Below are positions 8,260 through 53,345 of a stretch of DNA of 64,000 nt, piece after piece (position 1 is the first letter of the stretch; each line of letters starts with the position of its first letter). Position numbers and translations under genes: made by a program. The notes beneath the pieces were generated by a model that saw only the letters and a list, made by a program, of their open reading frames with translations, did no database searches and had not been told where the DNA came from. The stretch is from an uncultured Candidatus Saccharibacteria bacterium (lineage in GTDB: Bacteria > Patescibacteriota > Dojkabacteria > SC72): assembly GCA_964480345.1 (NCBI GenBank), contig CAYZNW010000001.1:1348-65347 (forward strand), given 5' to 3'.

Positions 8260-9654
8260 CTAGAGAACTCCTACATTAATACAACCCTTTTGACCTGCAT
8301 AGGATGTTATATATACACCTAAAGGACTACTTACGTTTGTAGTTGTATTGCCTGCTTTTATTGTTATTCCACTACCTGATAAAGGAGAGACAGATATACC
8401 AGCATAGTTATTTCCCAAACTGATATTTGACCCTGTATTTAAACTAACATACTGAGAAGCTCCTTTGTTTAAGGATAAGTCCTTACAACCTGGAGCTGCT
8501 GGAAAGTCAGTAAAATTGTACTGAAGCTTAGCCTCGGTAACGATTGAAATAGCATTACTCTTTATTCCACCCATCTCAGCCCAGATACTATTTGTACTTG
8601 CAGCAGCAGTATTCGTAGTGGTAACCTCTCCTGTATTAGGATTGAGACCAAGCGAACCAAACTGACCTCCTATATTGCCTGAACCCTTGTATACTACAAT
8701 TCCTTTGCTACTCGGATCTGCATCTGCTGGAAGATACTGTAATGTTGGTCTCGCAGTTCTCAATGTCGTATCTCCATGGTATAGATATGTTCTGTTATAT
8801 GTAATCTTTAGACCTGTCACAGGATTTGTAACAGTAACATTTGCTATTGCAGATTTCCCATCTGCAGTTTTTACTGTAATAACGGCAGTACCACTAGCTA
8901 CACCAGTTACCACTCCATTACTTACAGTCGCTACTCCAGTATTACTAGAAGACCAAGTAACAGCTTTGTTAGTAGCATTTGCTGGTAAAACTGTCGCAAC
9001 TAATGTATCAGAAGCTCCTTTTCTCAACGCAACACTTGTCTTATTCAATGTAACACCTGTTACCTCTACTGTCCCTGGAGTCACAACCTTAGAACTCTCC
9101 GTCTTCTTCGAATCCTCTTTCTTTACCTCTTCCCACTGAGCAGCTAATGTAATATCTTCGCTAACTAAAGTCTCAAAATTATACTCTGCACCGTTTAGAA
9201 ACCATCCTTTGAAAGTAAAGTTATCCTTATTTGGATCCATTGGTTTAGCTACAGCGGTATTCTCTACCACTTCAATTACATTAGCTTCTAAACCATTGTC
9301 TGCATTAAATGTCACTTTAAATGTTTTCGCATCATTAGAAATCCAATTAGCTACAAGCTTTATATCTTTTGTAATCTTGGTAGAAGGAGCAAAAGTTTGT
9401 CCATCTAGTAACCAACCATTAAATTTATACCCTTCTTTAGTAGGCTCTTCTGGTAGTGGTAAGTTTTCACCTTCTTTTACTACTACTTTTTCAACAACAG
9501 TACCACCATCAGTATCGAAAGTAATAGCATATGTTTTCTCTTTGTTTCCAAAGATAATAATGGCAGCTATAACTGCTGCTATTACTAGTAAGATTCCACC
9601 AAGAATGTAAGGGAATTTCTTACTCTTTAAGATTTTATTTAATTTGTCCTTCAT
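8260..9654 (-). CDS. Surface protein with two InlB-B/Listeria-Bacteroides (flg_new) repeats and a Big_2 Ig-like domain
   Basis: N-terminal TM/signal; YAITFDTDGG...GYKFNGW and FKVTFNADNG...FKGW repeats; Big_2-like VTGVTLNK...AVITVKTADGKSAIANVTV. Confidence 0.65.
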   Translation of the reverse strand: MKDKLNKILKSKKFPYILGGILLVIAAVIAAIIIFGNKEKTYAITFDTDGGTVVEKVVVKEGENLPLPEEPTKEGYKFNGWLLDGQTFAPSTKITKDIKLVANWISNDAKTFKVTFNADNGLEANVIEVVENTAVAKPMDPNKDNFTFKGWFLNGAEYNFETLVSEDITLAAQWEEVKKEDSKKTESSKVVTPGTVEVTGVTLNKTSVALRKGASDTLVATVLPANATNKAVTWSSSNTGVATVSNGVVTGVASGTAVITVKTADGKSAIANVTVTNPVTGLKITYNRTYLYHGDTTLRTARPTLQYLPADADPSSKGIVVYKGSGNIGGQFGSLGLNPNTGEVTTTNTAAASTNSIWAEMGGIKSNAISIVTEAKLQYNFTDFPAAPGCKDLSLNKGASQYVSLNTGSNISLGNNYAGISVSPLSGSGITIKAGNTTTNVSSPLGVYITSYAGQKGCINVGVL

Positions 9655-9774: not shown

Positions 9775-11682
9775 TTATTCAAACAAAGCATCAAACTCTT
9801 CTCGTCCGACTACCTCTTTCTCTATGAGCATATCCACTAATTTCTCTACATACTCTTTCTTTTCAATAAGGATGTTCTTTGCATCTTTGTATGCTTCATC
9901 AACGAGATTCTTGATCTCCTGATCAATCACTTGTGCTGTCTGTTCACTGTAATCTTTACCTCCACCGTATGCATATCCCAGATGAGTAGTTTCGTCTAGA
10001 TCACCATACTTAATCATACCTAACTTCTCACTCATACCGTATTTCATAACCATTTCTTTTGCTACTTCTGTCACATGCTCTATATCAGAAGATGCTCCTG
10101 AAGAAACATCATCTAAGAAAATCTCTTCTGCTGCTCTTCCACCTACTCCTGTTCTTAACCAAGCTAGCATTTGCTTTTTGAAAAGTGTAGTTCTCTCTTT
10201 CTCTGGTAGATATACTGTTACCCCTCCTGTCATACCTCTAGATATGATAGAAATCTGCTCTACAGGATCAGAATACTCTGTAAATTTAGCAACAATAGCA
10301 TGACCTGCCTCGTGATATGCTGTTTTTCTAATATCATCCTCCTCCTTATCTCCTTTCTTCTTTCTACCTAATTTAACCTTTAAATATGCTTCCATCAAAT
10401 CTTCTTGTGATATCTGGGTCCTATCATCTTTTGCTGCCATAATAGCTGATTCATTTAAAAGATTTTCTAAATCAGCACCTGAATACCCTACTGTCTTTTT
10501 TGCCAAAGTATCTAAATCTACACCCTCTTCAAATTTCTTGTTTTTAGAATGAACATCTAATATGGCTTTTCTACCTTTTGCATCAGGCATAGGCACTACT
10601 ACTGTTCTATCAAATCTTCCTGGTCTCAAAATTGCAGTATCTAAAACATCAGGTCTGTTTGTCGCAGCAAGTACAATTACATTTTCTCTTTCTTCCAATC
10701 CATCCATTTCAACCAATATCTGATTTAATGTTTGCTCACCTGCTCCAGAGTGCAATACTGTCCCTCTTTTTTTTGCTACAGCATCAATTTCATCGATGAA
10801 TATAATGCACGGAGATGCATTTCTAGCTTTTTTGAATAAATCTCTGACTCTTGAGGCACCTGCGCCTACCAACATCTCTTCAAATTCTGATCCTGATGTA
10901 TGGAAAAACGGCACGCCTGCCTCTCCTGCAATAGCTTTTGCCAAAAGGGTTTTTCCAGTACCAGGAGATCCTGCTAAAAGCACTCCTTTTGGAATTCTAG
11001 CACCAGCATCAGTATATTTCTTTGGATATTTAAGAAAATCTACAATTTCAGTCAACTCTTCTTTTACCTCATCAATTCCTGCAACAGAATCAAACGATGT
11101 TCCTGATTTCTTACCAAAAAGAAGCCTTGCCTTACTCTCTCCAAAATCCATTATCTTTCCTCCAGAAGCAGGCATATTTTTAATCATCATATATCCAAAA
11201 ATAACTGCTGCCGTTAAGAAAAGAAAGGTTAATATATCCCCAAAGGACACCTCTATTGCTGGTTGGTAGTAATCATTTTTTAAATCTTGAACTTTTATAC
11301 CAGCATTAGTCAAAATATCATAGAAATTTGATTTATCTGGAAGCAGTGCAAACTTACGAGATATAGTTTCTACACCATCCTTTTCCTCGTTCTTCTGAAG
11401 AATTATCATGTCGTCTTTAAGATATATCTTGTCGTAATCTTTCTCCGTTATATTTGTAACTATCTCACTAACAGAAACCTCTTCCCCTTTATTATTTAAT
11501 GCTTTGTACATAAACATCACTCCTGTAAGAAGCAATGAGATGATGATAACCGTTAGGACGCTAGGAATTTTGAATCTTCTGACTGGCAATTTACGAATAT
11601 CTACAGTGTAAACATTTGATTCTTCTTTCTTAACCTGATCTTTACTACTACTAGCACTTTTTTTACTTCTTTCCTTTTTCAT
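9775..11682 (-). CDS. ftsH: ATP-dependent zinc metalloprotease FtsH
   Basis: TM, AAA Walker A LLAGSPGTGKT, SRH, zinc site HEAGHAIV. The ORF-track N-terminal extension (to 11763) overlaps a tRNA, so trimmed to Met at 11682. Confidence 0.9.
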   Translation of the reverse strand: MKKERSKKSASSSKDQVKKEESNVYTVDIRKLPVRRFKIPSVLTVIIISLLLTGVMFMYKALNNKGEEVSVSEIVTNITEKDYDKIYLKDDMIILQKNEEKDGVETISRKFALLPDKSNFYDILTNAGIKVQDLKNDYYQPAIEVSFGDILTFLFLTAAVIFGYMMIKNMPASGGKIMDFGESKARLLFGKKSGTSFDSVAGIDEVKEELTEIVDFLKYPKKYTDAGARIPKGVLLAGSPGTGKTLLAKAIAGEAGVPFFHTSGSEFEEMLVGAGASRVRDLFKKARNASPCIIFIDEIDAVAKKRGTVLHSGAGEQTLNQILVEMDGLEERENVIVLAATNRPDVLDTAILRPGRFDRTVVVPMPDAKGRKAILDVHSKNKKFEEGVDLDTLAKKTVGYSGADLENLLNESAIMAAKDDRTQISQEDLMEAYLKVKLGRKKKGDKEEDDIRKTAYHEAGHAIVAKFTEYSDPVEQISIISRGMTGGVTVYLPEKERTTLFKKQMLAWLRTGVGGRAAEEIFLDDVSSGASSDIEHVTEVAKEMVMKYGMSEKLGMIKYGDLDETTHLGYAYGGGKDYSEQTAQVIDQEIKNLVDEAYKDAKNILIEKKEYVEKLVDMLIEKEVVGREEFDALFE

Positions 11683-11715
11683 GAATTCTCTTTTTAATTT
11701 TAGTTTCTGGATAAA

Positions 11716-11789
11716 TGGTGGGAAGTGGAATCGAACCACCGACCTTGGGTTTATGAATCCCATGCTCTAACCGACTGAGCTATCCCACC
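11716..11789 (-). tRNA. tRNA-Met (anticodon CAU), elongator type; Ile2/lysidine type not excluded
   Basis: Cloverleaf GGTGGGA/TCCCACC acceptor, anticodon loop TTCATAA, T-loop GGTTCGATTCC; TATAAT about 7 nt upstream of 5' end. Confidence 0.8.
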
Positions 11790-12481: not shown

Positions 12482-12575
12482 AAATTTCTCACTTATATTA
12501 AACAAACGTGATTCTATCACCGCAATCAACGTTTTTCAACTAACTAAAACAAATATTTTTTAGAAAAATCGAAAA

Positions 12576-12650
12576 TGGTTGCGGGGGTTGGATTCGAACC
12601 AACGACCTTTAGGTTATGAGCCTAACGAGCTTCCACTGCTCTACCCCGCG
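12576..12650 (-). tRNA. Initiator tRNA-fMet (CAU)
   Basis: CGCGGGG 5' end with C1xA72 mismatch, A11:U24, anticodon loop CTCATAA, 3' CCCCGCAACCA encoded. Confidence 0.75.
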
Positions 12651-12700
12651 CTAAACATGTGAGATTATACCGAATTATTCATATTTCTTCAAATTCTTAG

Positions 12701-12722
12701 AGGTCTGACCTAGGTCCGACCT
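12701..12722. repeat. Palindromic repeat copy 2 (AGGTCTGACCTAGGTCCGACCT)
   Basis: 22-bp palindrome with one mismatched pair; same CCTAGG-centred family as 8177-8190. Confidence 0.5.
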
Positions 12723-12886
12723 GTTGTAAGATACTTTTCATCTTTGCGAAAAAGGCTTGCCAAAGCAGGTTTCTGCGGTATGGCAAAGTATATCCGCTTT
12801 TGGAGACGAGTAGACCGTAGAGCTTAGGCGCGACAAAGTCTTTCTAAACTGGGCTTACTTATTCTTATGAACTTTCTCTTGCTAGA

Positions 12887-12908
12887 GGTCGCACCTAGGT
12901 CCGACTCG
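12887..12908. repeat. Palindromic repeat copy 3 (AGGTCGCACCTAGGTCCGACTC)
   Basis: 9-bp arms around CCTAGG; right arm identical to copy 2; lies just 3' of the ftsB-like gene. Confidence 0.45.
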
Positions 12909-12913
12909 GAGTT

Positions 12914-13360
12914 TTAAATCCCTTCCTCGAAGAATTTGAGCCATGCTTTGTAGGCGTACTCTGTGGGTTTTTGATCGGTTTCGTCTATGTATGTTGCCAC
13001 GATGTTTTTTGAGTTTTTTAACAGTTCGGGATCTATGATAAAGACATATTCGTTGCTACCAGACAGGTTTAGTCTGTCTCGAGCTTGCACTTCAAGATAT
13101 TCGTTGCTTTTCATATCTTCTAACTCTAAGCTCATTCTTAAATTGCGGATTCGTAATTCATTAACTTCCTTTTTCGCATTTTTAGAAATTTCTAATTTCT
13201 GCATGGTTATTTCAAAGGAGTGGTATACATTGTAGAAAAGAAGGATAGATATACCTATTAATGAGATCTGGACGAAGAAATTTCCTAGTAGTGGGTTAAG
13301 TGGAGGAGATTTTCGCTCTGTTTTAATATTTTCGTTGGTACGATATATGACTTTATCCAT
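12914..13360 (-). CDS. FtsB/DivIC-like septum formation initiator (bitopic)
   Basis: Single TM, coiled coil, conserved EYLEVQARDRLNLSGSNEYVF motif resembling the FtsB/DivIC family. Confidence 0.55.
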   Translation of the reverse strand: MDKVIYRTNENIKTERKSPPLNPLLGNFFVQISLIGISILLFYNVYHSFEITMQKLEISKNAKKEVNELRIRNLRMSLELEDMKSNEYLEVQARDRLNLSGSNEYVFIIDPELLKNSKNIVATYIDETDQKPTEYAYKAWLKFFEEGI

Positions 13361-13478
13361 GGAATTATACTATCAGTATCCTACGCCACTTTCAAAACCT
13401 ATATACATTTATTATTGCTCTTGGGCTTCACTGATGATATAATTACTTTATATCCATAAAATTTAAGAAAGAAATATA

Positions 13479-14366
13479 GTGGGGCAAATAAATAATGTTA
13501 ATTTCAAAGAAAAAGCGGATCAGTTCATAGAGGATTTAAGAAAGAAAAACAGGTCAGAAGCAACAATAATTGCTTATGCGAAGGATCTTGAGCAGTTACT
13601 GAACTATTTTTCCAAAAACAGTATCGCTTCTTTTGAGAAAGTTACAATTGAAGATTTGGAGGGATATAGACAAAATCTACAGGACAATAACTACACTCCT
13701 AAGAGTATTTCTAGGAAGATAAATAGTACAAGAACTTTCTTTAGATACCTATTAGAAAATGGAGCTATTGAAGATAATATTTCTGAGAAGTTGTCTCATC
13801 CTAGATTTGAGATTAAACCTCCTAGAATTTTATCGGAGATGGAATACAGATCTTTGCGAGATGTTAGTCGAGTTGACATTAGACTCTACTCTATCGTAGA
13901 GATATTGCTTCAGACAGGTATCAGAATTGGTGAATTGGCAAGTTTGACTTTAGATGATATTAGACAATCTAAAGATGGAAAGATCGATTTTCTTTATATC
14001 AAACAGGCAGGTAGTCATGCTGCAAGAAAAGTTCCTCTAAATAAATCAGCGAAGAAAGCTATAGATGAATATATGAATGTGCGACCAGAAACAGAGGACG
14101 ATACTCTTTTTGTAACAAAGAATGGTAGAGCTTTGTTGGTCAGAAATATTAGAACTGCAATTGATAAAGCTTTCGAAAGAGCTGGTATTAAAAATGCAAA
14201 GGTTAATGACTTAAGAAATACTTTTATCGCACATCATTTAGCAAATGGTATTGATTTGAGAGTCGTATCAAAGCTAGTAGGACACAAGAGATTGTCAACT
14301 ACAGAGAAGTATTTGAATGTCATTAAAACACAGATCAACGAAGAGAGTTCTCTAAAGGAACTTTAA
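13479..14366 (+). CDS. Tyrosine recombinase, XerC/XerD-like
   Basis: N-terminal SAM-like domain; catalytic R...HxxR...GHKRLSTTEKY (R-H-R-Y). GTG start. Confidence 0.8.
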   Translation: MGQINNVNFKEKADQFIEDLRKKNRSEATIIAYAKDLEQLLNYFSKNSIASFEKVTIEDLEGYRQNLQDNNYTPKSISRKINSTRTFFRYLLENGAIEDNISEKLSHPRFEIKPPRILSEMEYRSLRDVSRVDIRLYSIVEILLQTGIRIGELASLTLDDIRQSKDGKIDFLYIKQAGSHAARKVPLNKSAKKAIDEYMNVRPETEDDTLFVTKNGRALLVRNIRTAIDKAFERAGIKNAKVNDLRNTFIAHHLANGIDLRVVSKLVGHKRLSTTEKYLNVIKTQINEESSLKEL

Positions 14367-17300
14367 TTTACGAAGTTTTCCCCTACTACTTCCCCATCTC
14401 TTTCTACTTTTACTATTTTGCTTGCTGCGGAGTTGTTTTCAACTTCTATCTTATAGCTTCCTTCATCTACTACAAATCTGTACCGTCCTTTCTCATCTGT
14501 TACCCTCTTTTCTAATATACGATCAAACTCAGGATCTTTTAATAGTACCGGAATATCTGATAGAGGCATTTTTTCGCTGTTTGTTACAACCCAATATTTA
14601 TTTCTTCTTCTACTAAGTAAAGGATAGATTACAAAAGACAAAGGAATAACATAGATTAAAGGAATTAGTAGATTAAATGTTGTTGGATTCTTAATATATA
14701 TATATGCTGATATAGCAGTTCCTACTATTAAAATGGCGAGATTAAGAAATACAATTGCATTACTTAAGAAGCTTCTCATCACGACTTTATTTCTCGCAGA
14801 GGAATCTATATCTACAGGATCCATAGGAATGGCAACTTCGACATCTATATCTTCTTTTTTGACAGTAATAGAACCTTTGTATACATGAGTCAAAGGATAA
14901 TCTACACCCTCTGTGATAATTCTACTTGGGAATAGGAAACCTCCTTTAGATACCTGTAACACATATTTACCATCATTTAATCTTGTCATAAATCTTCCTT
15001 TTCCATCTGTAACACTACTGTTTACTAACTTACCTGATTCTTCAAAAATACGAACTACTGCCATACTCAACGGTTCTTTTGTTCTTGAATTGTAAACCAT
15101 ACCGTACGGTATTTCTTTTTTCTTGAAGCCTAAAGCCACAAGGATACTTGTGAAGAACTGACCTATTGCATAAATTACAGGTAGTATTCCTCCAGAAGCG
15201 ATAATTGTACTGACAGCTGTTGTAGCTACCGTTACTGTACTTACTGTAGCTGTATTTGTTAAATTGGTACTCTCATCTGTAGAGGACATCCATGATTTGA
15301 CTAATCCCTCTATTCTTCCAGGTATGTTTGCAAGAGCAGAAATGAAGGTATTTGCAACTTTGGAAGTTGCTGTGGTCGTGGTAGAAGTATCTGAACCTGA
15401 GCTACTCTCTTTCTCTTCATTGTATCCAAGACCTCCTGTGCCAGTTAATCCATCTGCGATCCAGTAAGTTACATTTCCTATTACTGCTTTAGAAACTGTA
15501 ACTGAACTAGCTTCCACATCCTTGCTTTGTGGGAATTCACCTGTATATTTCACTCCTCCTGCACAGTTCAAACTAACTTCACTCAAACTCTTAGCTTCAG
15601 GACAAAGCATAAATGAATTAGTATCGTTTCCTACTACAAACATCGTATATTTATTTGCAAGGCCTTGATCTTCGGAAAGTTTAACAACTGTTTTCTTTTC
15701 ACTTGCAGACATATCAATTAATGCTTCAGACCAATCTCTGTCTTTAGAGAAAAGAATAGGTATCTCCGCTACGATATACAGACCTGAGTATACTTTGACT
15801 TTCTGCTCCCCAAGCTGGCCATTTTCCACCAGAGTTAAGTCTATATTGTCATCTTCAGACAGAACAACATTTATTCCCTCCTGAACATTTAAAATGATAG
15901 CTTTAGCTCCAATAAAGATCGGGTTACTCCATACTGTTAATACTCCATTCATATTTCTTCCAGCAACAGAGAAACCGTACTGTTGTCCTACCTCTAGACC
16001 ATTTATTAAGATACCATTAGACCCTCCAAAATCAGTAAACTTACCGTATTTAGGAGAATCTATAAATGTTGAAGAAGAGAAATCTATATATTTACCAGAA
16101 TTAGTTTCTTTTATTGCGAACTCTGTATATGTAGGGTTTTCTAAAGTATTAATATATACACGAGCAGAATTAGAAGTAACCCTATCTACCTTTATTGTAA
16201 TAGGTGGCTGAGCAAATGTTGACACAGAAATTACTTCTGACCATTCTGAAAACACTCCATCCTTGTTTGAACTTCTTGCTTGGAAAGTATACTTCTTATT
16301 TGGTGCCAGACCAGATACTGTTATGCTTTCGGCAAAAGGTAAAGATGATGTGAAAGAGAGAAGAACTCCAGTGTTTCGGTCATAATATTTCTGCTCAGTT
16401 GTCTCAAATACTTGGATGCTATCTCTCGTACTTCCTGTTAATTTTAGAAGAACAGAACCGTATGTAACAGGTGTAGCTGACGCTACTTTCACTGATTCGG
16501 ACATTGTATTAAATGAAAGTAACTCTGTCTTAGCGCTATCTGATAAAGAATTGTATGCTTGAATAGATCTCTTGTAAATCGTATTTGATGTAAGATTCGT
16601 TTCTTTACAATTTGAACTCGTAATATCTTCAAGAGTGCATGTTAGTATTAGAGAAGAGTTCTCATCATATATCCGATATCCAGTAACTGTACCAGCAGTA
16701 GGAGCATCTACTGTCCAAATAATTTCATTTGTAGTAATAGAGCTAGCCTTAAATCCTGTTGGTGTACTAATTTTAGTAACGATATCAGTACTTTCAGAAA
16801 ATTCTGTCTCAATATTCAAACTGTTTTTTGCTTTAATAACAAAAGAGTACTCTGTATTAGGCAATAGGTTTGTAAGTACAATACCATTTAAACCTCCGTA
16901 CTGAGTATAAGTAAACCACTCTGGAGTATCTATTAAAACTTTCGATACAGCATCTACATATTTCCCACTCTTACTCTCTTGTACCAGATACTGTGTAGTA
17001 GCTGGGTTATTCGTTGCATCTATCTTGATTTTTAATTCGTTTGTCTTAATATCTGTTATTTCAACAGGATTTGGTTGTGCAGATACTGTTCTTATAGTTA
17101 CATACTCAGAAAAAGCACTTTCTATACCATCGTAGTTTTTGGACTTTACTCTAAATTTATACTCAGTATCAGGAAATAGATTGATAACTGTATCTGAAGT
17201 ATCCACTAACCATTCGTTTATTCCGTCATTACATGAGCTATCAATACATTCAAAAAAGAAGGCTGTTTGTCCAACTCCAGTATTATTAACTCCACTTGCC

Positions 17301-19660
17301 GAAACAGTTAAGGAATTACTCGTTATATTGGATACTGTTAATGTAGGAGGCACAGAGTATGTGTATGCTGTTTGAATATCTGAATACTCTGTCTCTACAC
17401 TATCTCCATTTCTTCCTTTAATTCTAAATCCATAAAGAGTGTTATTTTCTAAACCAGTAACTTGCTGCGTATCGGATCTTACCCATCCATTAATACCTGT
17501 ATTACAATTACTACCTATAGCACAATTTAGTAATATCTCAGAATCATTTACTCTATCCGAGATTGTAAAATCCATTGTTGTAGATGCGATTGAGAGTATC
17601 GTAAATGAGGGTATTCGCAATGTTGTATATACCTGTTTCGCAGCAGAGAGTACACTTTCTCCAGCACTGTTGTAAGCAGATATTTTCCTAGTATATTGTG
17701 TATTTTCTAACAAGCCACTCTCTTCACATGTATTTATGCTACTACCAACACAAGTTTTAATTAGATTGTTTAGTCCATCATACAATCTCACTCCATCCGC
17801 GACTCCAGATCCATATGTAAAATTCCACAAAATTTTATCAGTAGATGGTAACGGTGTACCCATTACAGGAGTATTTGGTATAGCTAGCGTAGAGAATTGC
17901 GCAGTAGCTGACCAAGCGCTTACAGCATTGAAGTTATCCCAGAATCTAACCCTCCAGTAGTAGGTATTTCCGTATGACAGAGCCGAGCCTGCATAAGAAA
18001 TATCTGGAGTTCTTGCGCCATTAGTTACTTGAGTAGCAAAGCCTGTTTGCCCTGTATCCCAGAGCATTGTTCCATTAAATGCGGAAGCGGTGTTAACTTG
18101 TATTTGGTAATATGCTCCTCTATCAGTACTATCTGGATCTGAAAATATTGCTGAGAACTCTGGAGTCATATCAATGATATTAGTTGGGTTTGTTAAACCT
18201 TCCGTCAGTAAAGATGTAGGAGCATTTGGAGCTTTGTTTCCGACTATTTCTCCTCCAAGTGTTACTGATTGCGAGGCGGTTCTTTTACCGTATAGGACAG
18301 TAATGTATGGAGGGATGCTGCTACCTGAAATAGATGCTGAAGCTGTGTGACTATGGTCATCAGGAGCAAATCCCACAGCTACTCCAGCAATAAAACGGCT
18401 AGATTCATATACTCTTGGTACGGTGAAAGACAATGCGTGTGAGTGTGTGGCAGAGCCTTGGGCTGTTAAATTTACACCTGTTCCACCTGCAGCGAAAAAG
18501 TTATCTAGTGCTGTGTATCTACTCCACCCTAGCGGAGGTATTACAGAGAACATAGAAATTACAGGAGCATTAACAGTAGCATTAGGATTTTTAACAAACA
18601 GTAAGGTTTTGAATGGAGGATAATTACTTCCAGCACCGTTAGAAGATAGTGTTACTGAGTGTACATGCCCTCCTCTTGCAACATCTCTAGTACTTCCTCC
18701 ATCTATAGTTATATTTCCACAATAGTTATTTGGTGCAGCCGATGTAGCTAAACTACTAAAAGTATGAGTATGGGTTCCTGCTCCCCCTAAAGCTCCTGCT
18801 GAAGCAGCTCCATACGGTATTCTACCATCAAAAATAGTTTCTCTACTCCATCCTGCTGGGATAGAGCTATCAGACAAAAATGTTAAATTGCTTGTTCCTG
18901 ACAAAGAGTTTCTAGAACATACGTAAGATGTCGAGTATGGAGGTAGAGAGGCTGTGCTACTTACTGTTCCTGTAACAGTATGGGTATGACCGAAATGACA
19001 TCCGCAAATCCAAGTTTCTCCATCAGTTACATTACCACCACCAGAATTCCCTGAGGTATTTACAGAGAGACTTCCTCCATGGTTATGAGAGGAGGCTCCT
19101 CCCGTATTACCATATACAGTACTTCCATACGCCATCCTATTATCAAAAACTGTTTCTCTAGTCCAACCGGCAGGACACGCCGCTGTAGAGTACAGAATAG
19201 CTTTTCCTGTCCACGCCATAGAAGTTGAAGTTGCGGAGCTATTTCCATAATACAGATAAATATTTTTACCTACTGCCGAGGTAGGAACTCTTACCCATAC
19301 TTGAGTAGAAGCTGTATTACACCCTCCTTCCACCCAATGGGAAAGCAATGTAGTATCATTACTATCTACAAATCTAATATCAGAACAATCACTTTTCATC
19401 TTCCCTTGTGTTATCAAAGTAGATGAATCAAATGGCACCAGCACATCTATGTTTGACCCTGCAGCAGAAAGAGTTACAGTTTTTCTATACAACCAACTAT
19501 CACTAAACCAACCAGATGCTATTGGATTTCTATCTAAAATCAAAAGAAATATCAAAAGTGGCAATGCTGTTATTATCAAAAAGATAGACAGATATACTAC
19601 AAAATTTCTTGTTATCATCATCCCAAATAAGGAGAAAGTTTTTTCTTTCTTGGCAGTCAT
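14363..19660 (-). CDS. Giant multidomain surface protein: N-terminal TM + DUF2341/LamG-like domain, three tail-collar-like PxGW...THxH repeats, multiple fibronectin type III repeats, C-terminal TM segments with two carboxypeptidase-regulatory-like domains
   Basis: DIRFVDSNDTTLLSHW...IYLYYGN (DUF2341-like); repeated AGWSRETxFDxR...GG(A/S)xTHxH; repeated FN3-like roughly 90-aa units; MAVVRIFEESGKLVNSSVTDGKGRF and RVTDEKGRYRFVV (CarbopepD_reg-like). Confidence 0.7.
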   Translation of the reverse strand: MTAKKEKTFSLFGMMITRNFVVYLSIFLIITALPLLIFLLILDRNPIASGWFSDSWLYRKTVTLSAAGSNIDVLVPFDSSTLITQGKMKSDCSDIRFVDSNDTTLLSHWVEGGCNTASTQVWVRVPTSAVGKNIYLYYGNSSATSTSMAWTGKAILYSTAACPAGWTRETVFDNRMAYGSTVYGNTGGASSHNHGGSLSVNTSGNSGGGNVTDGETWICGCHFGHTHTVTGTVSSTASLPPYSTSYVCSRNSLSGTSNLTFLSDSSIPAGWSRETIFDGRIPYGAASAGALGGAGTHTHTFSSLATSAAPNNYCGNITIDGGSTRDVARGGHVHSVTLSSNGAGSNYPPFKTLLFVKNPNATVNAPVISMFSVIPPLGWSRYTALDNFFAAGGTGVNLTAQGSATHSHALSFTVPRVYESSRFIAGVAVGFAPDDHSHTASASISGSSIPPYITVLYGKRTASQSVTLGGEIVGNKAPNAPTSLLTEGLTNPTNIIDMTPEFSAIFSDPDSTDRGAYYQIQVNTASAFNGTMLWDTGQTGFATQVTNGARTPDISYAGSALSYGNTYYWRVRFWDNFNAVSAWSATAQFSTLAIPNTPVMGTPLPSTDKILWNFTYGSGVADGVRLYDGLNNLIKTCVGSSINTCEESGLLENTQYTRKISAYNSAGESVLSAAKQVYTTLRIPSFTILSIASTTMDFTISDRVNDSEILLNCAIGSNCNTGINGWVRSDTQQVTGLENNTLYGFRIKGRNGDSVETEYSDIQTAYTYSVPPTLTVSNITSNSLTVSASGVNNTGVGQTAFFFECIDSSCNDGINEWLVDTSDTVINLFPDTEYKFRVKSKNYDGIESAFSEYVTIRTVSAQPNPVEITDIKTNELKIKIDATNNPATTQYLVQESKSGKYVDAVSKVLIDTPEWFTYTQYGGLNGIVLTNLLPNTEYSFVIKAKNSLNIETEFSESTDIVTKISTPTGFKASSITTNEIIWTVDAPTAGTVTGYRIYDENSSLILTCTLEDITSSNCKETNLTSNTIYKRSIQAYNSLSDSAKTELLSFNTMSESVKVASATPVTYGSVLLKLTGSTRDSIQVFETTEQKYYDRNTGVLLSFTSSLPFAESITVSGLAPNKKYTFQARSSNKDGVFSEWSEVISVSTFAQPPITIKVDRVTSNSARVYINTLENPTYTEFAIKETNSGKYIDFSSSTFIDSPKYGKFTDFGGSNGILINGLEVGQQYGFSVAGRNMNGVLTVWSNPIFIGAKAIILNVQEGINVVLSEDDNIDLTLVENGQLGEQKVKVYSGLYIVAEIPILFSKDRDWSEALIDMSASEKKTVVKLSEDQGLANKYTMFVVGNDTNSFMLCPEAKSLSEVSLNCAGGVKYTGEFPQSKDVEASSVTVSKAVIGNVTYWIADGLTGTGGLGYNEEKESSSGSDTSTTTTATSKVANTFISALANIPGRIEGLVKSWMSSTDESTNLTNTATVSTVTVATTAVSTIIASGGILPVIYAIGQFFTSILVALGFKKKEIPYGMVYNSRTKEPLSMAVVRIFEESGKLVNSSVTDGKGRFMTRLNDGKYVLQVSKGGFLFPSRIITEGVDYPLTHVYKGSITVKKEDIDVEVAIPMDPVDIDSSARNKVVMRSFLSNAIVFLNLAILIVGTAISAYIYIKNPTTFNLLIPLIYVIPLSFVIYPLLSRRRNKYWVVTNSEKMPLSDIPVLLKDPEFDRILEKRVTDEKGRYRFVVDEGSYKIEVENNSAASKIVKVERDGEVVGENFVN

Positions 19661-19715
19661 AGCAATATTTTAATAGAATATATGCGAGTTAGCAACTAAA
19701 GAAAGATTATAGAAA

Positions 19716-19792
19716 TGGTGGGAATAGGTGGACTCGAACCACCGACCACGGCTTTATAAGAACCGCGCTCTAACCGCCTGAGCTATATTCCC
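19716..19792 (-). tRNA. tRNA-Ile (anticodon UAU)
   Basis: Cloverleaf GGGAATA/TATTCCC acceptor, anticodon stem CGGTT/AGCCG, loop CTTATAA, T-loop GGTTCGAGTCC, CCA encoded. Confidence 0.7.
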
Positions 19793-19847
19793 ATTATGTA
19801 GAGAGATTCTATCAAAAGTTAGAATAATTTAGAAGTACTTGCGTATA

Positions 19848-22370
19848 TTAAAATATTGAAGAGAAATCTTTGAGAGGATCCTCTTTACTCGCTGTGTTTA
19901 CATCCAACTGTGATCTTGTTCGAATATCCTCATTAATAATATTAGTATCTCGACCATATTTCCTTCTAGAAATCTCCTTAACTATTCTAGCAACTTCAGC
20001 ATTGACAGGTAAATCAAATCCTGAGTCTGGGAATTTAGGTCCATACGATGCATCAAGAGAGAATGGTGAAGGATATGATCCGTTTACTAATAGCTTTGTA
20101 TAGTAATGCCCTATGCCTTGATTCACCATATCAGTAGCAGATACATATGATTCAAATGGTGTTTCTAAAAATTTAGCATCTTCAGGAGAACATCGTGCTA
20201 TAAACAAACTACCAACATTACCAAAAACTGCATTTTTGATATCCTCTGGTAACTGCCCTATATACTGATGTGCTAACGTTAAATTCAATCTGTACTTTCT
20301 AGCTTCAGAAAGTATGGAGTTAAATTCTTCAGTTGCAAAATTCTGGAATTCATCAGCATAGAAGAAGAAATCTCTTCTCTGATCCTCAGGGATATTTTCT
20401 CTACTCAATGCTGCTGCTAGCATCTTTTGCACAAGAAGAAGACCTAGGAACGACATATTTTCATCTCCAATAATACCTTTAGAAAGGTTAACTATTAGAA
20501 TCTTCCCTTCATCCATAATCTGTCTAAAATCAAAAGAAGAGGTTGATTGCCCTATGATATTTCGAATAGCTAGATTCGTTGTAAATTTATCAAATTTTGA
20601 TATGAAGTATGTCAATGATTCAGCTTTAGTTTTCTTATCTGTCTTGGCAACCTGATCTGTCCAATATCTGTGTACTAGCTCATCCTTCACTTGTGGTAAC
20701 CAGTAATTCATCACCCAATCTTCATCTTGTAAAATCCTAACCACCTCTATTAATGTGGAATCTGGTCGAGACATAGCTGTCAACATAGAGTTTCTAACTG
20801 CCTGTTGAAATGCTGGACCAGCATATCCTTGATTGTTTGGATCAAACAATCTAATTAATAAAGCAATGAAGCTATTAACAATTTGATGCTTATGCTGTTC
20901 ATTGTAATACTCCATGATATTCAAACCAAAAGGTCTCTCAAAATCTCCAGCATTGAAATATATAACTTTGTCAGCCTTCTCAGGAGGAATTCTCTCTAAA
21001 ATCATCTCGGCGGCAGAACCGTGTGGGTCAATAAAACAAACACCATCTCCATTATATATATCTTGAAGGATCATTCTAACCATTAACCAAGATTTACCTG
21101 TACCTGTCTGTCCTAAAATATATGCATGTCTTCTCCTATCATCTCTTTCAAAACATATCATTTTCTTCTTACCTCTAAAGTAGTTGTTCCCTACCCATAT
21201 CATATCTTTAGAGTTAACATCTGAACTAATGTCATTACTTGCTACTAACTCTTTTGACAGAAGCCATTTAATATTTGGAGTAGAAACATCTTTGTTTGGA
21301 AAATGATATAACCCTGCAAGCTCCTCTAAATTTAAAATACTTTTTTCATCTTCAGGAGTTCTTCTGTAAATCACATCATAGAGAAAAGATTGTGAATTTT
21401 TACTATCAATCTTTTTCTTCTTTAATTTATTAATACCTGGATTACTGTACTGATCATATGCACCAATAATATTATCCAGATGCATCTTCGCAATTTCTTT
21501 ATCTTTCGCACTAGTCACTATTCTAATTTCTGCAACTAAACCTGGTTTAGATATCTTATCTCGAATAGCTTGTAGCTTTTCTTGAGATACATTTATCTTT
21601 TTCTTCTCTGGATTAGAATTATTACTTTCAACTTTCTGTATGAATTGTGAACCATTTTTCTGCCATTGAGAATCTGATGGAGCTACAACAAGCTGAACCA
21701 TTGCTCCTTCATTTTCCGCCATCTTACTCAGTGTACTTAAAACATTGGCCATAGGATCTCCTGTGAAATCTTCTGCTTTCCTTATTGGATTGTAAGACTC
21801 TTCATCAAGAACGAGCCTAGCGTAAGCTAACTGATTCCCTTGTGCGAAGATATTGTATTCATCAACTATAGAAACATCTGCATCTTGATACGATCCTAGT
21901 ATTTGTTTCTCAACCAAATCAGCATATTTTCGTGGGCAATGGACAAAGAATCTAATCTCACCTGGTAATCCAACTATTTCGAAACTGACACAGTTACTTA
22001 CAGTAAAATTCTGGGCTATCCCCTCTGCTTTAGCACTGATACCGTACAGGTTAGCAAACATTTTTTCGGCAACACCGATTTCTACTTCATTGTTTCTAGG
22101 GACTCTTACCTCCATTAAAACTCCATCACTGGCTTTCTCATTTCGGTCTTTCTTTTTTAATTTTTTCTTAACAAAGAAAAAACCTAAAACTGCTATCAAA
22201 ACCAGCAGTAGTATAAAAGCTATCCAACCAAATGGAATATTTAGACTTTTAGAACCGTAGTAGTCATCATATGAATTATCGGAGTACTTTACATCAGCTC
22301 CTACTTTAATATTTGAATCCACAACAGGGATGGGACCCTGTATTTGTGCGAGAGTATATCCAGATTTCAT
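19848..22370 (-). CDS. Membrane-anchored FtsK/HerA/VirD4(TraG)-family P-loop ATPase (type IV secretion coupling-protein-like)
   Basis: N-terminal TM; Walker A ILGQTGTGKSWLM, downstream CFIDPHGS (DPxG) and FFFYADEFQNF Walker-B-like, typical of the TraG/VirD4/DUF87 family. Confidence 0.55.
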   Translation of the reverse strand: MKSGYTLAQIQGPIPVVDSNIKVGADVKYSDNSYDDYYGSKSLNIPFGWIAFILLLVLIAVLGFFFVKKKLKKKDRNEKASDGVLMEVRVPRNNEVEIGVAEKMFANLYGISAKAEGIAQNFTVSNCVSFEIVGLPGEIRFFVHCPRKYADLVEKQILGSYQDADVSIVDEYNIFAQGNQLAYARLVLDEESYNPIRKAEDFTGDPMANVLSTLSKMAENEGAMVQLVVAPSDSQWQKNGSQFIQKVESNNSNPEKKKINVSQEKLQAIRDKISKPGLVAEIRIVTSAKDKEIAKMHLDNIIGAYDQYSNPGINKLKKKKIDSKNSQSFLYDVIYRRTPEDEKSILNLEELAGLYHFPNKDVSTPNIKWLLSKELVASNDISSDVNSKDMIWVGNNYFRGKKKMICFERDDRRRHAYILGQTGTGKSWLMVRMILQDIYNGDGVCFIDPHGSAAEMILERIPPEKADKVIYFNAGDFERPFGLNIMEYYNEQHKHQIVNSFIALLIRLFDPNNQGYAGPAFQQAVRNSMLTAMSRPDSTLIEVVRILQDEDWVMNYWLPQVKDELVHRYWTDQVAKTDKKTKAESLTYFISKFDKFTTNLAIRNIIGQSTSSFDFRQIMDEGKILIVNLSKGIIGDENMSFLGLLLVQKMLAAALSRENIPEDQRRDFFFYADEFQNFATEEFNSILSEARKYRLNLTLAHQYIGQLPEDIKNAVFGNVGSLFIARCSPEDAKFLETPFESYVSATDMVNQGIGHYYTKLLVNGSYPSPFSLDASYGPKFPDSGFDLPVNAEVARIVKEISRRKYGRDTNIINEDIRTRSQLDVNTASKEDPLKDFSSIF

Positions 22371-22417: not shown

Positions 22418-22771
22418 TTAATCTATATCGATTGGAGCTCCGTTTATTTTTCTGTTCAATATTGCAACTGCGTCATCAGCAGTAACTTCTTGATTTTTTA
22501 CTCTGACAATATTTTCTTGAATTTGTAGAGGGAGTTGGTACCCTGCTCTGTTAGACTGCTCTGTGGTAGGTTCATTACTATCTTTTTTGCCTATAAAAAT
22601 ATCACCCTTACTTATTGTCTTCTCTTCTGTAGAAGGTGTAGAGGCTGGAGACTCTTGTTCTACTCCTGTTTTTTCAGAGTTTAGATACTCAGCAGGAATA
22701 GAAGGAAGGTTCATTTGTGCCTCTGTCTGAGTAGAGATATTTTCAGTTATAGAGTTATCAGGATTTGCCAT
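22418..22771 (-). CDS. Hypothetical protein (acidic, no TM)
   Basis: ORF only. Confidence 0.35.
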   Translation of the reverse strand: MANPDNSITENISTQTEAQMNLPSIPAEYLNSEKTGVEQESPASTPSTEEKTISKGDIFIGKKDSNEPTTEQSNRAGYQLPLQIQENIVRVKNQEVTADDAVAILNRKINGAPIDID

Positions 22772-23239: not shown

Positions 23240-25519
23240 CTACAAAGATACTCTCCAGATAATGGAATTTTCAACAATATATGCATTTTTCTCTGATAGA
23301 TCTACAACTATGTCTTTTACATTAGACCAACTCTCGTTATTTTCGCCTCGATACTGATACTGATTCAATAGAAGTAATTGATTTGGATGTCTAACTTCTG
23401 CTCCACCCTCCAAAGGTTTCTCAAATCTGAATAATCTTTTACCATTAGAATCAAACAAGAACAGCGAGCTTTTCATATCTTCTCCGTATGTATATCCACA
23501 TGATAGATTACCGTAATCTCCATCAAATCCTAGAGGTGTCAAAGGATTTTCTGCTTGTTTCTGTTGAACATAGTTCCAGCTGTATCGATATATCTGGGTT
23601 GGAGCAACAACATATACACTTAAATCTCCTAGGATATCTATTCCCTGTTTAAATCCTTCATTTTCAATATATGGGAAGAGCAAGCTATATCTATTACTAT
23701 ATACCGCAGATGATTTTAGAATTACTCCAGTATCTTTAGTTAGGAAGTAAGCATTATCCGCATCTGTAAGCATAATCAAACTACTAATATCCTTGTACTT
23801 AATGTCTCCCCTAGTTAAACCCGACATACTTATAATGCTTCCAAAAAGATTGGTTTCATCAAATGGAGCTTTTAGCAATCCAGATTTCTCATCATATATG
23901 TATACTCCCTCCACTCCCATTGAAACAAACTTTGGATCTTTTACTAAACCCTTGTCATCAGTCAATGTTTTAATAGTTTTATCTGAAAGATCAACAGTAT
24001 ATATAGCTTTTCTTCCTTTATCGGAGAGAAGAAGATACTCTTTGTTATTCTTAGCATGATATATATCTACATCTGTTAAATCAGCTCCCTCTCCAAAAGT
24101 TAATCTAGCTTGAATATATTCCTCTAAATTACTACTCTGAGTAGACACCCCTATTTTCTTAAACAAGTTATCGGATACATCTAAATATTTCTTTTTCAAA
24201 TCTTCAAATGTCTTCAAATCTTTATCGCTAAGATCATTTGGAACTTCTTTAATTAAATTCTCAGCTCTAAATATATTTGTTTCAGCGCTATCTCTATCAG
24301 TAACAGCCGTACTCTCAGCTTTCCCTATAAATTCCTCTATCTTAGTAAACTTCTCTCTTGCATCTTTTGCTACTGCCCTCTCATACTTAATCTTTTTTGT
24401 GAAATTTACACCAAAGATTGCTAAACCTATGATGAGTATTAGAAGAAAAATGATTTTAAACCTTTTGTTTCTTAATTCTTTTATTTTGTAATCATCTATA
24501 CGAATAGAATCAACAGGAGATCTAACCTTTTTTGTATTTAACTTTACTTCTGAGACTTGAGATCCTATTTTCTTAAACCATCTTTTATTTTTAATCTTTA
24601 GAAAAACTTTTTCTTTTAGTGCAACAAAGAGTTTTCTTACAAAACTAAACAACTTTTCAAACAAGCCTTTTATTGAAGAACCTATATCTGCGAATTTCTC
24701 TTTGATATTTTTGGGTAAAGGAATCTTTATTTTTTCAAATAATGTTGAAATTCTACCTTTTACATTACTTGGAAGTTGAACCTTATCGACAACATCTGAT
24801 TTGAATTTCTTTAGGAACGCAGGAGTATCTTTTTCTTTCTTTGGCTCTTTTACAACCTTCTCTACATTTTGCACTTTCTCTTCATCACCTACCGAAGTTA
24901 AACAGAGCAAACCGCCTCCATCAGGTAAAGATTTTCCAACTTGAGCTAATGCAGATTTGAAAGAATCTTTCTGTGAAAGGATAGAAACTTTAGCTATTAC
25001 AGGAGAAAGAACTTTTGATGTAGAAATAATTAAACTTTCTTTTTCATCTAATACAAGACCTGCTGTATTCGCTTTTTTCTTATCCATTATCTCTGTTATA
25101 TTTACACATTTATCTTTTTTGCAAAGGAATATCTCATCTTCGCCCATCTTTCCTACATACAATCCTTCTTTTCGGACAAGTACAACAGTAAAGCTCATAT
25201 CTATTCCTGTTTCTTCCAGATCTTTATCATGTTTGATGAGGCTTTTCATTTTCTCTAAACCTTGATTTAGAGATTCTTTAAGTGCTTCATTTGTTGTTTT
25301 AGAAATAGAGTATATGTAACCATCTACAATTGCTTCTATGACAAATTTGGATAGTCTAGCTAACGGGATTCGTTTATGAGAGGAGATTCTAAAGAGGATA
25401 TATATGTCAGAATCTTTTCCAGACTTATCTTTCCTGTTTTCAAAAAGACTTTTATATACAATAACAAAGGAGTTACTGTTTTTTCTGTTGAGAATATATT
25501 GTTGGGCAGAGATTTCCAT
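23240..25519 (-). CDS. Large bitopic hypothetical protein (759 aa, one central TM, beta-rich C-terminal ectodomain)
   Basis: TM IIFLLILIIGLAIFGV; no confident domain. Confidence 0.45.
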   Translation of the reverse strand: MEISAQQYILNRKNSNSFVIVYKSLFENRKDKSGKDSDIYILFRISSHKRIPLARLSKFVIEAIVDGYIYSISKTTNEALKESLNQGLEKMKSLIKHDKDLEETGIDMSFTVVLVRKEGLYVGKMGEDEIFLCKKDKCVNITEIMDKKKANTAGLVLDEKESLIISTSKVLSPVIAKVSILSQKDSFKSALAQVGKSLPDGGGLLCLTSVGDEEKVQNVEKVVKEPKKEKDTPAFLKKFKSDVVDKVQLPSNVKGRISTLFEKIKIPLPKNIKEKFADIGSSIKGLFEKLFSFVRKLFVALKEKVFLKIKNKRWFKKIGSQVSEVKLNTKKVRSPVDSIRIDDYKIKELRNKRFKIIFLLILIIGLAIFGVNFTKKIKYERAVAKDAREKFTKIEEFIGKAESTAVTDRDSAETNIFRAENLIKEVPNDLSDKDLKTFEDLKKKYLDVSDNLFKKIGVSTQSSNLEEYIQARLTFGEGADLTDVDIYHAKNNKEYLLLSDKGRKAIYTVDLSDKTIKTLTDDKGLVKDPKFVSMGVEGVYIYDEKSGLLKAPFDETNLFGSIISMSGLTRGDIKYKDISSLIMLTDADNAYFLTKDTGVILKSSAVYSNRYSLLFPYIENEGFKQGIDILGDLSVYVVAPTQIYRYSWNYVQQKQAENPLTPLGFDGDYGNLSCGYTYGEDMKSSLFLFDSNGKRLFRFEKPLEGGAEVRHPNQLLLLNQYQYRGENNESWSNVKDIVVDLSEKNAYIVENSIIWRVSL

Positions 25520-48649: not shown

Positions 48650-49021
48650 TTATGATACTACTAAAATTAGTATTAATACAACAATTAATAAAGGGAAACC
48701 TAAAAGAATATCTAATATATGGAATATGTGTAGAAGAAGAACTACTACCAAACCTATCGATATTATTGATGATATTTTAATGGAGGATTTAACAGTTTGA
48801 TTGTAAGTAAGCTCTTTTTTGAATATTAAGTAGAAAAAGTATGAAAGGATTGATATTAATGTAAACATAATTACAAAAAGAAGAATTACTGTTGTTGAAA
48901 CATTTAATATATTTATATTCCCAACTTCATCAAATGGTACGAAAAGGTTGTTCATCAATAAATAGTACAAAAATCCTACAGAGAAAATCAGAAGAAAAAA
49001 ATTTACAAATACAAATTTCAT
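48650..49021 (-). CDS. Small polytopic membrane protein
   Basis: Three hydrophobic helices. Confidence 0.3.
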   Translation of the reverse strand: MKFVFVNFFLLIFSVGFLYYLLMNNLFVPFDEVGNINILNVSTTVILLFVIMFTLISILSYFFYLIFKKELTYNQTVKSSIKISSIISIGLVVVLLLHIFHILDILLGFPLLIVVLILILVVS

Positions 49022-49098
49022 AATATTTATTGCTCTAGGTTTTAAAGATATTTTACTTAATTACTAATATTATGCCATTAAATTTATAGATATTAGTA

Positions 49099-49782
49099 AT
49101 GAATATATTAATTATAGAGAATTCCTCTACTCTTTCACAGGTTCTATCAAAGAGTCTTGATTCGTATGGATATAAAACTACTTTAGATGATGATTCTTTT
49201 CAATCTAAAAAGTTGTTGAAAAAGGGTATATTTGATTTTGTTATTCTTAATACTAACTTAGGGAATAGTAAGAGTTATGAAATATTGGAGAGAATAAAGA
49301 GAGTTAAGAGTGATATAAAGGTGTTAGGAGTATGTAATAAAGGCAACTGGACAGAGAAGGTACAGTTTCTTAATAAGGGAGCTGATGATGTTTTAAGTTA
49401 TCCTTTTCCAATGCAAGAGCTTTTAGCAAGAATACAGACTTTAATTAGAAGACCATCTACTTATGTTGATAAGAATCTGTATATAGGTAAGTTTGTTCTT
49501 GATGTTGATAATAGAGCTATATATAAAGGGAAATCAGAGATAGATGTTAGAAGAAAAGAGTATGATCTTTTCGAATATCTTGTTAGAAATAGTGGAAGAA
49601 TTGTTTCTAGATGTGAGCTTTTAGATCATGTATGGGATTACAGAGAGTATATAGGTTCAAATACTGTAGATGTACATATTAAAAGGTTAAGAGATAAGCT
49701 TGATGACAAAAATATTATAGAAACTATCCACGGTGTAGGATATAAGGCTATAAATAAATCAAAAAAGACTAAATCATCATAG
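49099..49782 (+). CDS. OmpR/PhoB-family winged-helix regulator with atypical receiver lacking phospho-acceptor Asp (orphan)
   Basis: Receiver fold but IIENS (for DD) and ILNTNL (for LLDLML: Asp replaced by Asn); T->C and K->Y at the other phospho-sites; C-terminal trans_reg_C VDVHIKRLRDKL...HGVGYK. Confidence 0.75.
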   Translation: MNILIIENSSTLSQVLSKSLDSYGYKTTLDDDSFQSKKLLKKGIFDFVILNTNLGNSKSYEILERIKRVKSDIKVLGVCNKGNWTEKVQFLNKGADDVLSYPFPMQELLARIQTLIRRPSTYVDKNLYIGKFVLDVDNRAIYKGKSEIDVRRKEYDLFEYLVRNSGRIVSRCELLDHVWDYREYIGSNTVDVHIKRLRDKLDDKNIIETIHGVGYKAINKSKKTKSS

Positions 49783-53337: not shown

Positions 53338-53345
53338 ATAGATTT

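Follow-up and report, generated by a model that had tools for sequence, protein, structure and literature searches.

Three tandem phage fibre-type HxH units in the head of a Dojkabacteria surface protein: a candidate single-chain pseudo-trimer

Phage fibre tips are obligate homotrimers, and trimeric tips clamped by HxH motifs are already well known. In T4 gp37 the HxH motifs coordinate iron ions (PMC11705849), and Pa223 gp60 forms a homotrimer with a tip similar to that of T4 gp37 (bioRxiv 10.1101/2025.06.11.659172). Among cellular proteins, DUF2341 has been treated as an adhesin-type domain (PMC4858521), and has been reported from very large surface proteins of Patescibacteria with a possible part in host interaction (PMC11809585). 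In this work, a 64-kb stretch of contig CAYZNW010000001.1 (hereafter the window) was analyzed with respect to a 1765-amino acid (aa) protein, which is a cell-surface protein of Candidatus Dojkabacteria (Candidate Phyla Radiation, CPR; Patescibacteria) built as head, stalk and anchor. Its head combines a DUF2341 domain with three tandem HxH units of phage-fibre type, which would jointly be read, with a probability of about 0.6, as a pseudo-trimer contained in one chain, binding metal and serving an adhesin role.

The units of the window protein share with the T4 gp37 tip, T4 gp12 and Pa223 gp60 an IPxGW start, a GG-x3-HxH motif, a second HxH motif and a PPYxxxxFI end. Those three are fibre proteins with one unit per chain and three chains, whereas in the window three diverged units are found in one chain, belonging to a membrane-anchored cellular protein that is not part of a virion. 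The same one-triplet organization as in the window head was observed in Pas28 and Pas29 of Actinoplanes phage phiAsp2 and in the prophage proteins P0072, P0114 and P0075, although proteins of this type have four HxH motifs per unit instead of two, carry GWxLCDG in units 2 and 3, lack DUF2341, transmembrane helices and the FN3 stalk, and are located in tail-gene modules. With respect to the DUF2341 proteins of Patescibacteria and the type IV pilus-linked adhesins, the window protein is likewise a large, FN3-rich CPR protein with DUF2341 above threshold, but it differs from the pilus-linked adhesins in that its N-terminus has no pilin-type signal. Such a signal was considered and rejected (no G/A at -1, no conserved Glu at +5, and ordinary signal-like N-termini in the homologues), and no pilus genes were detected among the window open reading frames (ORFs) scanned. 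As an analogy only, with no relationship claimed, in beta-prism and beta-trefoil lectins three tandem repeats of a single chain make up a pseudo-threefold fold, and a threefold-symmetric binding module built in this way from three repeats is proposed here.

The HxH units and their relatives in phages

The 1765-aa ORF described in the original prediction, which had been made from the DNA letters alone, was borne out, and every feature listed for it was present at its place (Table 1). This included three tandem units of about 100 aa, which were recovered by motif scan. The order of motifs (PxGW(S/T)R.T, first HxH, second HxH and PP[YF]) was the same in all three, and the six HxH motifs of the whole protein were all located within the three-unit stretch. 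Across 26 aligned units the P, W, G, four His and P were invariant, and in a set of 570 units the columns of HxH layers 1 and 4 contained His in 91-99% of cases. The invariant residues of the 26 units, together with the 8002 proteins found by the unit profile, ruled out low-complexity composition as an explanation of the HxH repeats, an outcome against which the prediction had cautioned.

Neither the three-unit module nor its single units matched anything in Pfam (E <= 10), NCBIfam or the PDB sequences. A first search for relatives of the module yielded six, and each complete relative again had exactly three units. A profile built from five modules retrieved 138 relatives (E down to 1e-119), and a profile of 26 single units, searched against 1.84 billion representative proteins, matched 8002 at E <= 1e-3, 2260 at E <= 1e-10 and 713 at E <= 1e-30. 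Judging from these profiles, the HxH units are members of a large unannotated family. Units at the same position were more alike between proteins than units at different positions, suggesting that the triplication is old and that the order of the units became fixed. Positional orthology between cellular (two-HxH) and phage (four-HxH) units was also tried and rejected: all cellular units were closest to phage unit 1, so that one shared triplication and two independent ones were indistinguishable.

In relatives with four HxH motifs per unit, the extra motifs followed the first HxH with a 7-residue period. The loops between the HxH motifs were the most variable part of the unit (entropy of 3.0 bits vs. 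1.9-2.3 bits, in the cellular class), and large insertions were present in these loops in some relatives, including a Gly_rich_2 domain in locus L066. Such variable and insertion-prone loops would fit an exposed binding tip. Insertions of 150-250 aa, within or between units, were observed in some of the proteins (P0131, P0148, P0242, L027 939-2237 and L066 aa 149-700).

The phage-fibre relationship of the repeat module is well supported. The tail-collar resemblance proposed in the original prediction was retained in the sense of a phage-fibre-type module, on the grounds of Collar matches in relatives, profile alignments, matches in BFVD and prophage locations, but not as a direct match to the Collar family. 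Collar was matched by 30 of 97 family members at E <= 0.01 (best 1.6e-10), the set having come from a search whose profile contained the window module, and the matched part in these relatives was the IPxGWxLCDG start of the unit. The Collar model spans only ~22 of the ~100 unit residues in this branch, and the window units read GW(S/T)R.T, without the CDG motif of the Collar-matching relatives. By transitivity through these matching relatives, the window units can be regarded as homologous to Collar.

In addition, the hidden Markov model (HMM) of the unit matched single-unit phage tail collar or tail fibre proteins from VvAW1, Venkman, Sf-FR1 and UAM5 with E values of 1e-10 to 1e-16 (1e-13 to 1e-16 for those annotated as tail collar), the alignment running from position 2 to ~120 on their C-terminal domain. 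In three of these four proteins the Collar match was confined to profile positions 1-22 to 1-25, and UAM5 had none. Because the HMM aligned from end to end, one unit is taken to correspond to the whole tip domain of a single-unit phage fibre. When the window module was searched by tblastn against 50,697 phage records, none was found; only P0020, a relative with four HxH motifs, reached phage proteins in tblastn.

The best fold matches of the three-unit model in BFVD were Pas29 and Pas28 of phiAsp2 (1.6e-14 and 3.4e-13, respectively; TMq 0.55), and further matches were the tail fibre of an Aeromonas phage and a protein labelled 'phage tail collar domain'. The single-unit model had its best PDB fold matches in 9nxk, the tail fibre of Pa223 (E 0.034, probability 0.92, TMq 0.36), and in the C24 protein 6ov6 (E 0.28-0.8). 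The same entries, each of which contains three chains, also led the PDB sequence-profile search (E 0.67 for 9nxk and 0.026 for 6ov6), the resemblance of the window unit to 9nxk being weak both in fold (E 0.03) and in sequence (E 0.67). The prediction that paired His residues act as metal ligands in tail fibres is in agreement with the literature on T4 gp37 (PMC11705849).

Stand-alone triplet proteins of ~420 aa were located in prophage tail modules, at the position expected of a tail fibre. The order in these prophages was tail-tube, tape-measure, Dit, other tail genes, small ORF, triplet protein, and endolysin/holin/integrase. In the cultured phage phiAsp2, Pas28 and Pas29 come after the large tail protein with one 4/4/4 triplet each, and the GenBank note on Pas29 reads 'possible receptor recognizing protein; contains HXHY motifs'. 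In three unrelated prophages, the small ORF of 63-77 aa ended directly before the triplet protein (L002 9797-9997, L004 9808-9999 and L005 9768-10001); these ORFs had no family match, and could encode a dedicated assembly factor or attachment adaptor.

One module or three separate units

Exactly three units were identified with a local unit HMM in 115 of 123 and in 119 of 136 proteins, the remaining ones holding six or nine units in contiguous triplets, being truncated or having a unit split by an inserted domain, and none holding four or five; the top-150 list is biased to high scores, and one- or two-unit proteins could be missed in it. Locus L027, where the units of the triplets are set apart by inserted domains, conforms to the pattern. 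Locus L066 was examined as a candidate two-unit exception and discarded, as its Gly_rich_2 domain sits inside an inter-HxH loop and its record has an assembly gap. The number of HxH motifs per unit agreed within each protein (2/2/2, 3/3/3, 4/4/4 or ~7/7/7), with a within-protein range <= 1 in 91% of the proteins vs. 66% after permutation. AlphaFold2 (AF2) modelled the three units together with a predicted local distance difference test score (pLDDT) of 79.8 and a predicted TM score (pTM) of 0.77, with unit cores above 90 and inter-HxH loops of low confidence. For a single unit, pLDDT was 75 and pTM 0.46, and the region of the first HxH fell from ~95 to 53, in a comparison of runs that were built on different alignments and of scores that are indirect. 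The original prediction had described three tandem collar-like units; the units themselves are real, but since their counts were always multiples of three they are probably not independent 'collar' domains and together look like one pseudo-trimeric module. A single-chain pseudo-trimer would be the simplest reading of the three-unit sets, the agreement in HxH counts and the drop in pTM.

The related phage tip domains would act as homotrimers in which HxH motifs from three chains meet on the axis and bind Fe/Zn through six His. In the window protein, three protomer-equivalents would be fused in one chain, giving one pseudo-threefold module held together by two His6 layers, the first composed of H192/194, H297/299 and H406/408, and the second of H225/227, H332/334 and H436/438. 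The inter-HxH loops would form an exposed ligand-binding tip, with which the protein might recognize and attach to a surface structure on another cell, probably a glycan, in the manner of a phage receptor-binding protein. A surface adhesin is in this sense a plausible reading of the protein, which had been predicted to be a large adhesin or host-interaction fibre.

Several points weigh against this proposal, in addition to the limits on unit counts and on model comparison given above. The evidence for the pseudo-threefold packing and the His6 clusters is indirect, consisting of the unit counts of 3, 6 or 9 and of the higher pTM of the triplet. Pfam Collar (PF07484) was not matched by any window unit or by the whole module at E <= 10, and Foldseek detected no match of the whole three-unit model among PDB chains, which may reflect that a single-chain pseudo-trimer is hard to match to single extended protomers. 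The fold matches of the single-unit model in PDB were weak (E 0.03-0.8, TM ~0.36-0.41). The within-protein agreement in HxH number rests on few evolutionary events. An uncleaved N-terminal transmembrane segment would place the head beside the membrane and not distal to it, and a cytoplasmic location of the CarboxypepD_reg domains of the anchor would be unusual for that fold. Moreover, the covariation of layers between units was weak (mean phi of 0.11 for the same layer vs. 0.02 for different layers) and driven by one clade, and the four invariant His of each unit could also form an intra-unit site.

The last two points favor an alternative arrangement in which the three units are independent beads, each with its own four-His metal site, so that the triplication only adds avidity. 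Exactly four His are invariant per unit, as this arrangement would have it, and the single unit was still modelled by AF2 with a pLDDT of 75 and with confident terminal strands. Independent beads are nonetheless unlikely, given that units were counted strictly in sets of 3, 6 or 9, with no protein having 4 or 5, that the closest solved matches of single-unit relatives were three-chain entries, among them the Pa223 tail fibre, which is a homotrimer, and that pTM was 0.77 for the triplet vs. 0.46 for one unit. The 4 or 7 HxH motifs per unit found in relatives would also provide too many His for one intra-unit site.

Hydrolases often bind metal through HxH motifs, and many phage receptor-binding proteins are enzymatic. 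Moreover, the domain next to the head is of a type found at the N-terminus of alpha-L-rhamnosidases, and the head could be imagined as a metal-dependent enzyme, for example a glycan depolymerase as in some phage tail spikes, with catalytic instead of structural HxH motifs. This is very improbable, as no catalytic family was matched anywhere in the protein (Pfam, NCBIfam), the rhamnosidase matches were confined to the Ig domain (31 bits vs. a cut-off of 1800), and the nearest structural and sequence relatives were fibre tips.

Distribution, anchoring and inheritance of the protein

The occurrence of the head was surveyed by scanning one genome per species. The DUF2341 domain plus triplet was present at full coverage in ~55 of the 80 loci kept, mostly in Candidatus Dojkabacteria (WS6), metagenome-assembled genomes (MAGs) labelled Saccharibacteria, and Microgenomates. 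The block YW[IV]EGGC[NG]T of the DUF2341 part was conserved in ~55 related heads. Several genomes held more than one copy of the head, and these paralogs vary in their stalks and anchors, the head-bearing proteins spanning from 646 to >2400 aa, with two or three triplets in some giant proteins (L039, L027). The genes encoding DUF2341-plus-triplet proteins were neighboured by housekeeping genes. In six of the seven proteins scanned for domains (L009, L010, L011, L013, L060 and L062) the head was followed by a Rha78A-type Ig domain, with or without FN3 domains and a CarboxypepD_reg anchor; the seventh (L066) had Gly_rich_2 insertions instead of the Ig domain, and an assembly gap in its record. 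The DUF2341 block alone (query aa ~7-103, ~50% identity), without the triplet, was observed in Aenigmatarchaeota and Nanoarchaeota MAGs (L072-L087), which suggests that this piece of the head is common to CPR bacteria and DPANN archaea.

The domain architecture of the 1765-aa protein is certain. An identical protein was present on an independent Logan contig, and the ortholog at Dojkabacteria locus L009 (1759 aa) had the same architecture. The N-terminal transmembrane segment and the DUF2341 domain which had been predicted were both recovered, the former by hydropathy, at aa ~18-42 and with an N-flank rich in K/R, and the latter as a Pfam match to PF10102 (aa 91-147, E 4.3e-16, 59.6 bits vs. 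a cut-off of 23.4) that includes the DIRF (aa 94-97) and YLYYGN (aa 135-140) blocks. Based on its sequence, the N-terminal segment would be either a signal peptide or a signal anchor, with IAS|G (aa 47-50) as a possible signal-peptidase site; its cleavage would decide whether the head is distal or beside the membrane. In the stalk, the Rha78A-type Ig domain matched PF25788 (E 1.5e-20, 73.9 bits vs. a gathering score of 27.4) and the FN3 repeats matched PF00041 (E 2.9e-27, 95.1 bits vs. a gathering score of 25). At least seven FN3-like repeats had been expected, and seven were delimited at aa 593-1252, with limits set by pairwise BLAST and an internal-repeat HMM.

The C-terminal anchor cassette consists of a transmembrane helix, a CarboxypepD_reg domain, two further transmembrane helices and a second CarboxypepD_reg domain. 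As had been anticipated, hydropathy segments and two Pfam stretches (PF13620, 1.2e-13, 51.6 bits vs. a gathering score of 32.3) were found there, and the L009 ortholog showed a SdrD_B/CarboxypepD_reg match at the position equivalent to domain 2. The description of these domains as 'membrane-embedded' was imprecise, as they are soluble and lie between and after the transmembrane helices. The C-terminal 516 aa had three detectable relatives (P0259, P0260 and P0261), all with the anchor cassette; P0259 was 35% identical over 99% of this region, while the ectodomains of P0260 and P0261 differ from that of the window protein. In all four proteins the first transmembrane helix was followed by a K/R cluster (KKKE, RRKQK, PKRRP) and the hairpin by RRRNK or a similar sequence, so that the two beta-sandwich domains are predicted, under the positive-inside rule, to face the cytoplasm. 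The cassette, apparently not described before, may be a module for anchoring or signalling.

The presence of a phage-fibre-like module beside a Xer-type recombinase had been taken to make a horizontal origin plausible, which the analysis of the genomic setting did not support. The 64-kb window corresponds to core chromosome (tmRNA, SmpB, FtsH, EF-P, DivIC, PolA, DnaA, RNase J and eight tRNA/tmRNA genes), and no phage structural family was matched among the window ORFs scanned. The gene order of the window (SmpB, small ORF, VirD4-like ATPase, tRNA-Ile, big protein, convergent Xer, DivIC and tRNA-Met) was the same at L009, which belongs to another Dojkabacteria species and is the closest relative (72% identical over the head). 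The recombinase aligned over its full length with the NCBIfam profiles XerC, XerD and XerA (170.9, 167.5 and 156.2 bits; equivalog cut-offs of 335, 330 and 220, respectively). The segment from the tRNA to Xer contains only the big-protein gene, and no direct (att-type) repeat involving the tRNA-Ile was found within 12500-20000. A comparison of GC content with the neighboring regions, as proposed with the prediction, revealed a slight rise over 17-20 kb (0.39 vs. ~0.35), which coincides with the Gly/Ala/Thr/His-rich head.

Because of the synteny with L009, the absence of a tRNA repeat, the Xer profiles and the head composition behind the GC rise, a recent horizontal origin is unsupported. That the gene could be cargo of an integrated mobile element or prophage remnant, as the tRNA-Ile at one end, the tyrosine recombinase at the other, the phage-type head module and the raised GC might suggest, is extremely improbable in view of the same data, of the absence of phage structural families among the window ORFs scanned and of the lineage-wide paralogous family to which the head belongs. 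Gene order and family relationships show the gene to be a vertically inherited member of a paralogous Dojkabacteria surface-protein family, and not one that was recently brought in by a mobile element. The data imply that phages and cells exchanged the module long ago, in either direction.

In the accessible literature, no mention was found of the fused three-in-one form, of its wide occurrence in prophage tail modules, of its use at the head of a family of Dojkabacteria surface proteins, or of the anchor cassette. If the pseudo-trimer is true, it would represent a natural metal-clamped fibre tip in which one chain has taken the place of three, and a widespread one-chain form would show how an obligate-trimer fold becomes single-chain. 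The fused form comprises >700 sequence clusters, with no full-extent Pfam/NCBIfam model and no solved structure. A single chain would allow asymmetric binding surfaces, and might offer a compact scaffold for engineered receptor binders. For partner recognition in CPR bacteria, a lineage-wide paralogous family with a variable-loop head of phage type would provide concrete candidates and residues, and suggests that these host-dependent bacteria carry on the cell surface a device for recognition of the phage type. More tentatively, and with the odds leaning against it, CPR episymbionts may have domesticated a phage receptor-binding tip as a single-chain pseudo-trimer with two His6 sites, which would act as the variable, host-choosing head of multi-paralog adhesins, while the fused form would also be the monomeric receptor-binding protein of a large unrecognised group of siphophage-like prophages.

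Table 1. Features of the 1765-aa surface protein gene and of its neighbors, in window coordinates.
Feature	Position	Strand	Basis or remarks
Whole gene (head, stalk, multi-pass anchor)	14363..19660	-	1765 aa; ORF list and translation
N-terminal hydrophobic segment, aa ~18-42	19535..19609	-	Hydropathy scan, peak 3.0
DUF2341 domain, aa ~50-150 (Pfam match aa 91-147)	19211..19513	-	PF10102
HxH unit 1, aa 153-250	18911..19204	-	PAGWTRET, H192/H194, H225/H227, PPY; unit HMM independent E value (i-E) 3.5e-18
HxH unit 2, aa 258-358	18587..18889	-	PAGWSRET, H297/H299, H332/H334, PPF; unit HMM i-E 8e-23
HxH unit 3, aa 366-460	18281..18565	-	PLGWSRYT, H406/H408, H436/H438, PPY; unit HMM i-E 1.1e-14
Rha78A-type N-terminal Ig domain, aa 481-591; first stalk domain	17888..18220	-	Pfam PF25788
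Seven FN3 domains (stalk), aa 593-1252	15905..17884	-	Pfam fn3
Membrane-proximal domain without family match, aa ~1253-1415	15416..15904	-	No Pfam/NCBIfam match; conserved in P0259
Ser/Thr-rich linker, aa ~1416-1484	15209..15415	-	Translation
Transmembrane helix 2, aa ~1485-1512, then KKKE	15125..15208	-	Hydropathy, flank charges
CarboxypepD_reg-like domain 1, aa ~1517-1615	14816..15112	-	PF13620, best stretch aa 1520-1576, 1.2e-13
Transmembrane hairpin, aa ~1630-1655 and 1660-1684, KNPTT loop, then RRRNK	14609..14773	-	Hydropathy, flank charges
CarboxypepD_reg-like domain 2, aa ~1688-1765	14366..14599	-	Second Pfam CarboxypepD_reg stretch
Xer-type tyrosine recombinase, convergent neighbor, not part of the system	13479..14366	+	Pfam Phage_integrase and SAM_1
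tRNA-Ile, anticodon TAT (UAU), directly upstream of the big gene	19716-19792	-	Conserved at L009 5720-5796
VirD4/TraD-like coupling ATPase, 840 aa, adjoins the big gene	19848-22370	-	Weak matches, C-terminal half only
117-aa protein without family match	22418-22771	-	
759-aa protein without family match	23240-25519	-	

Neighboring genes and other features of the window

Most bacteria read AUA with a lysidine-modified CAU tRNA, and the tRNA-Ile(UAU) upstream of the big gene may say something on AUA decoding in this lineage. The synteny of the neighborhood of the VirD4/TraD-like ATPase was kept in L009. The region at 49000-53500 of the window is probably the chromosomal replication origin, since DnaA (51345-52787, minus strand) is located beside the stretch of lowest GC (0.28-0.29) and the GC skew switches near it from negative to positive.

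In addition, an ATP-dependent DNA ligase of archaeal/eukaryotic type, with LigA_N, M and C domains, was identified next to PolA (3236-5062, minus strand), and 8260-9654 (minus strand) encodes another putative surface protein, 464 aa long, with Listeria-Bacteroides repeats (Flg_new) and a Big_2 domain. The listed ATG (11763) of the FtsH ORF (9775-11763, minus strand) overlaps the tRNA-Met at 11716-11789 (minus strand), so that its true start is probably further downstream.

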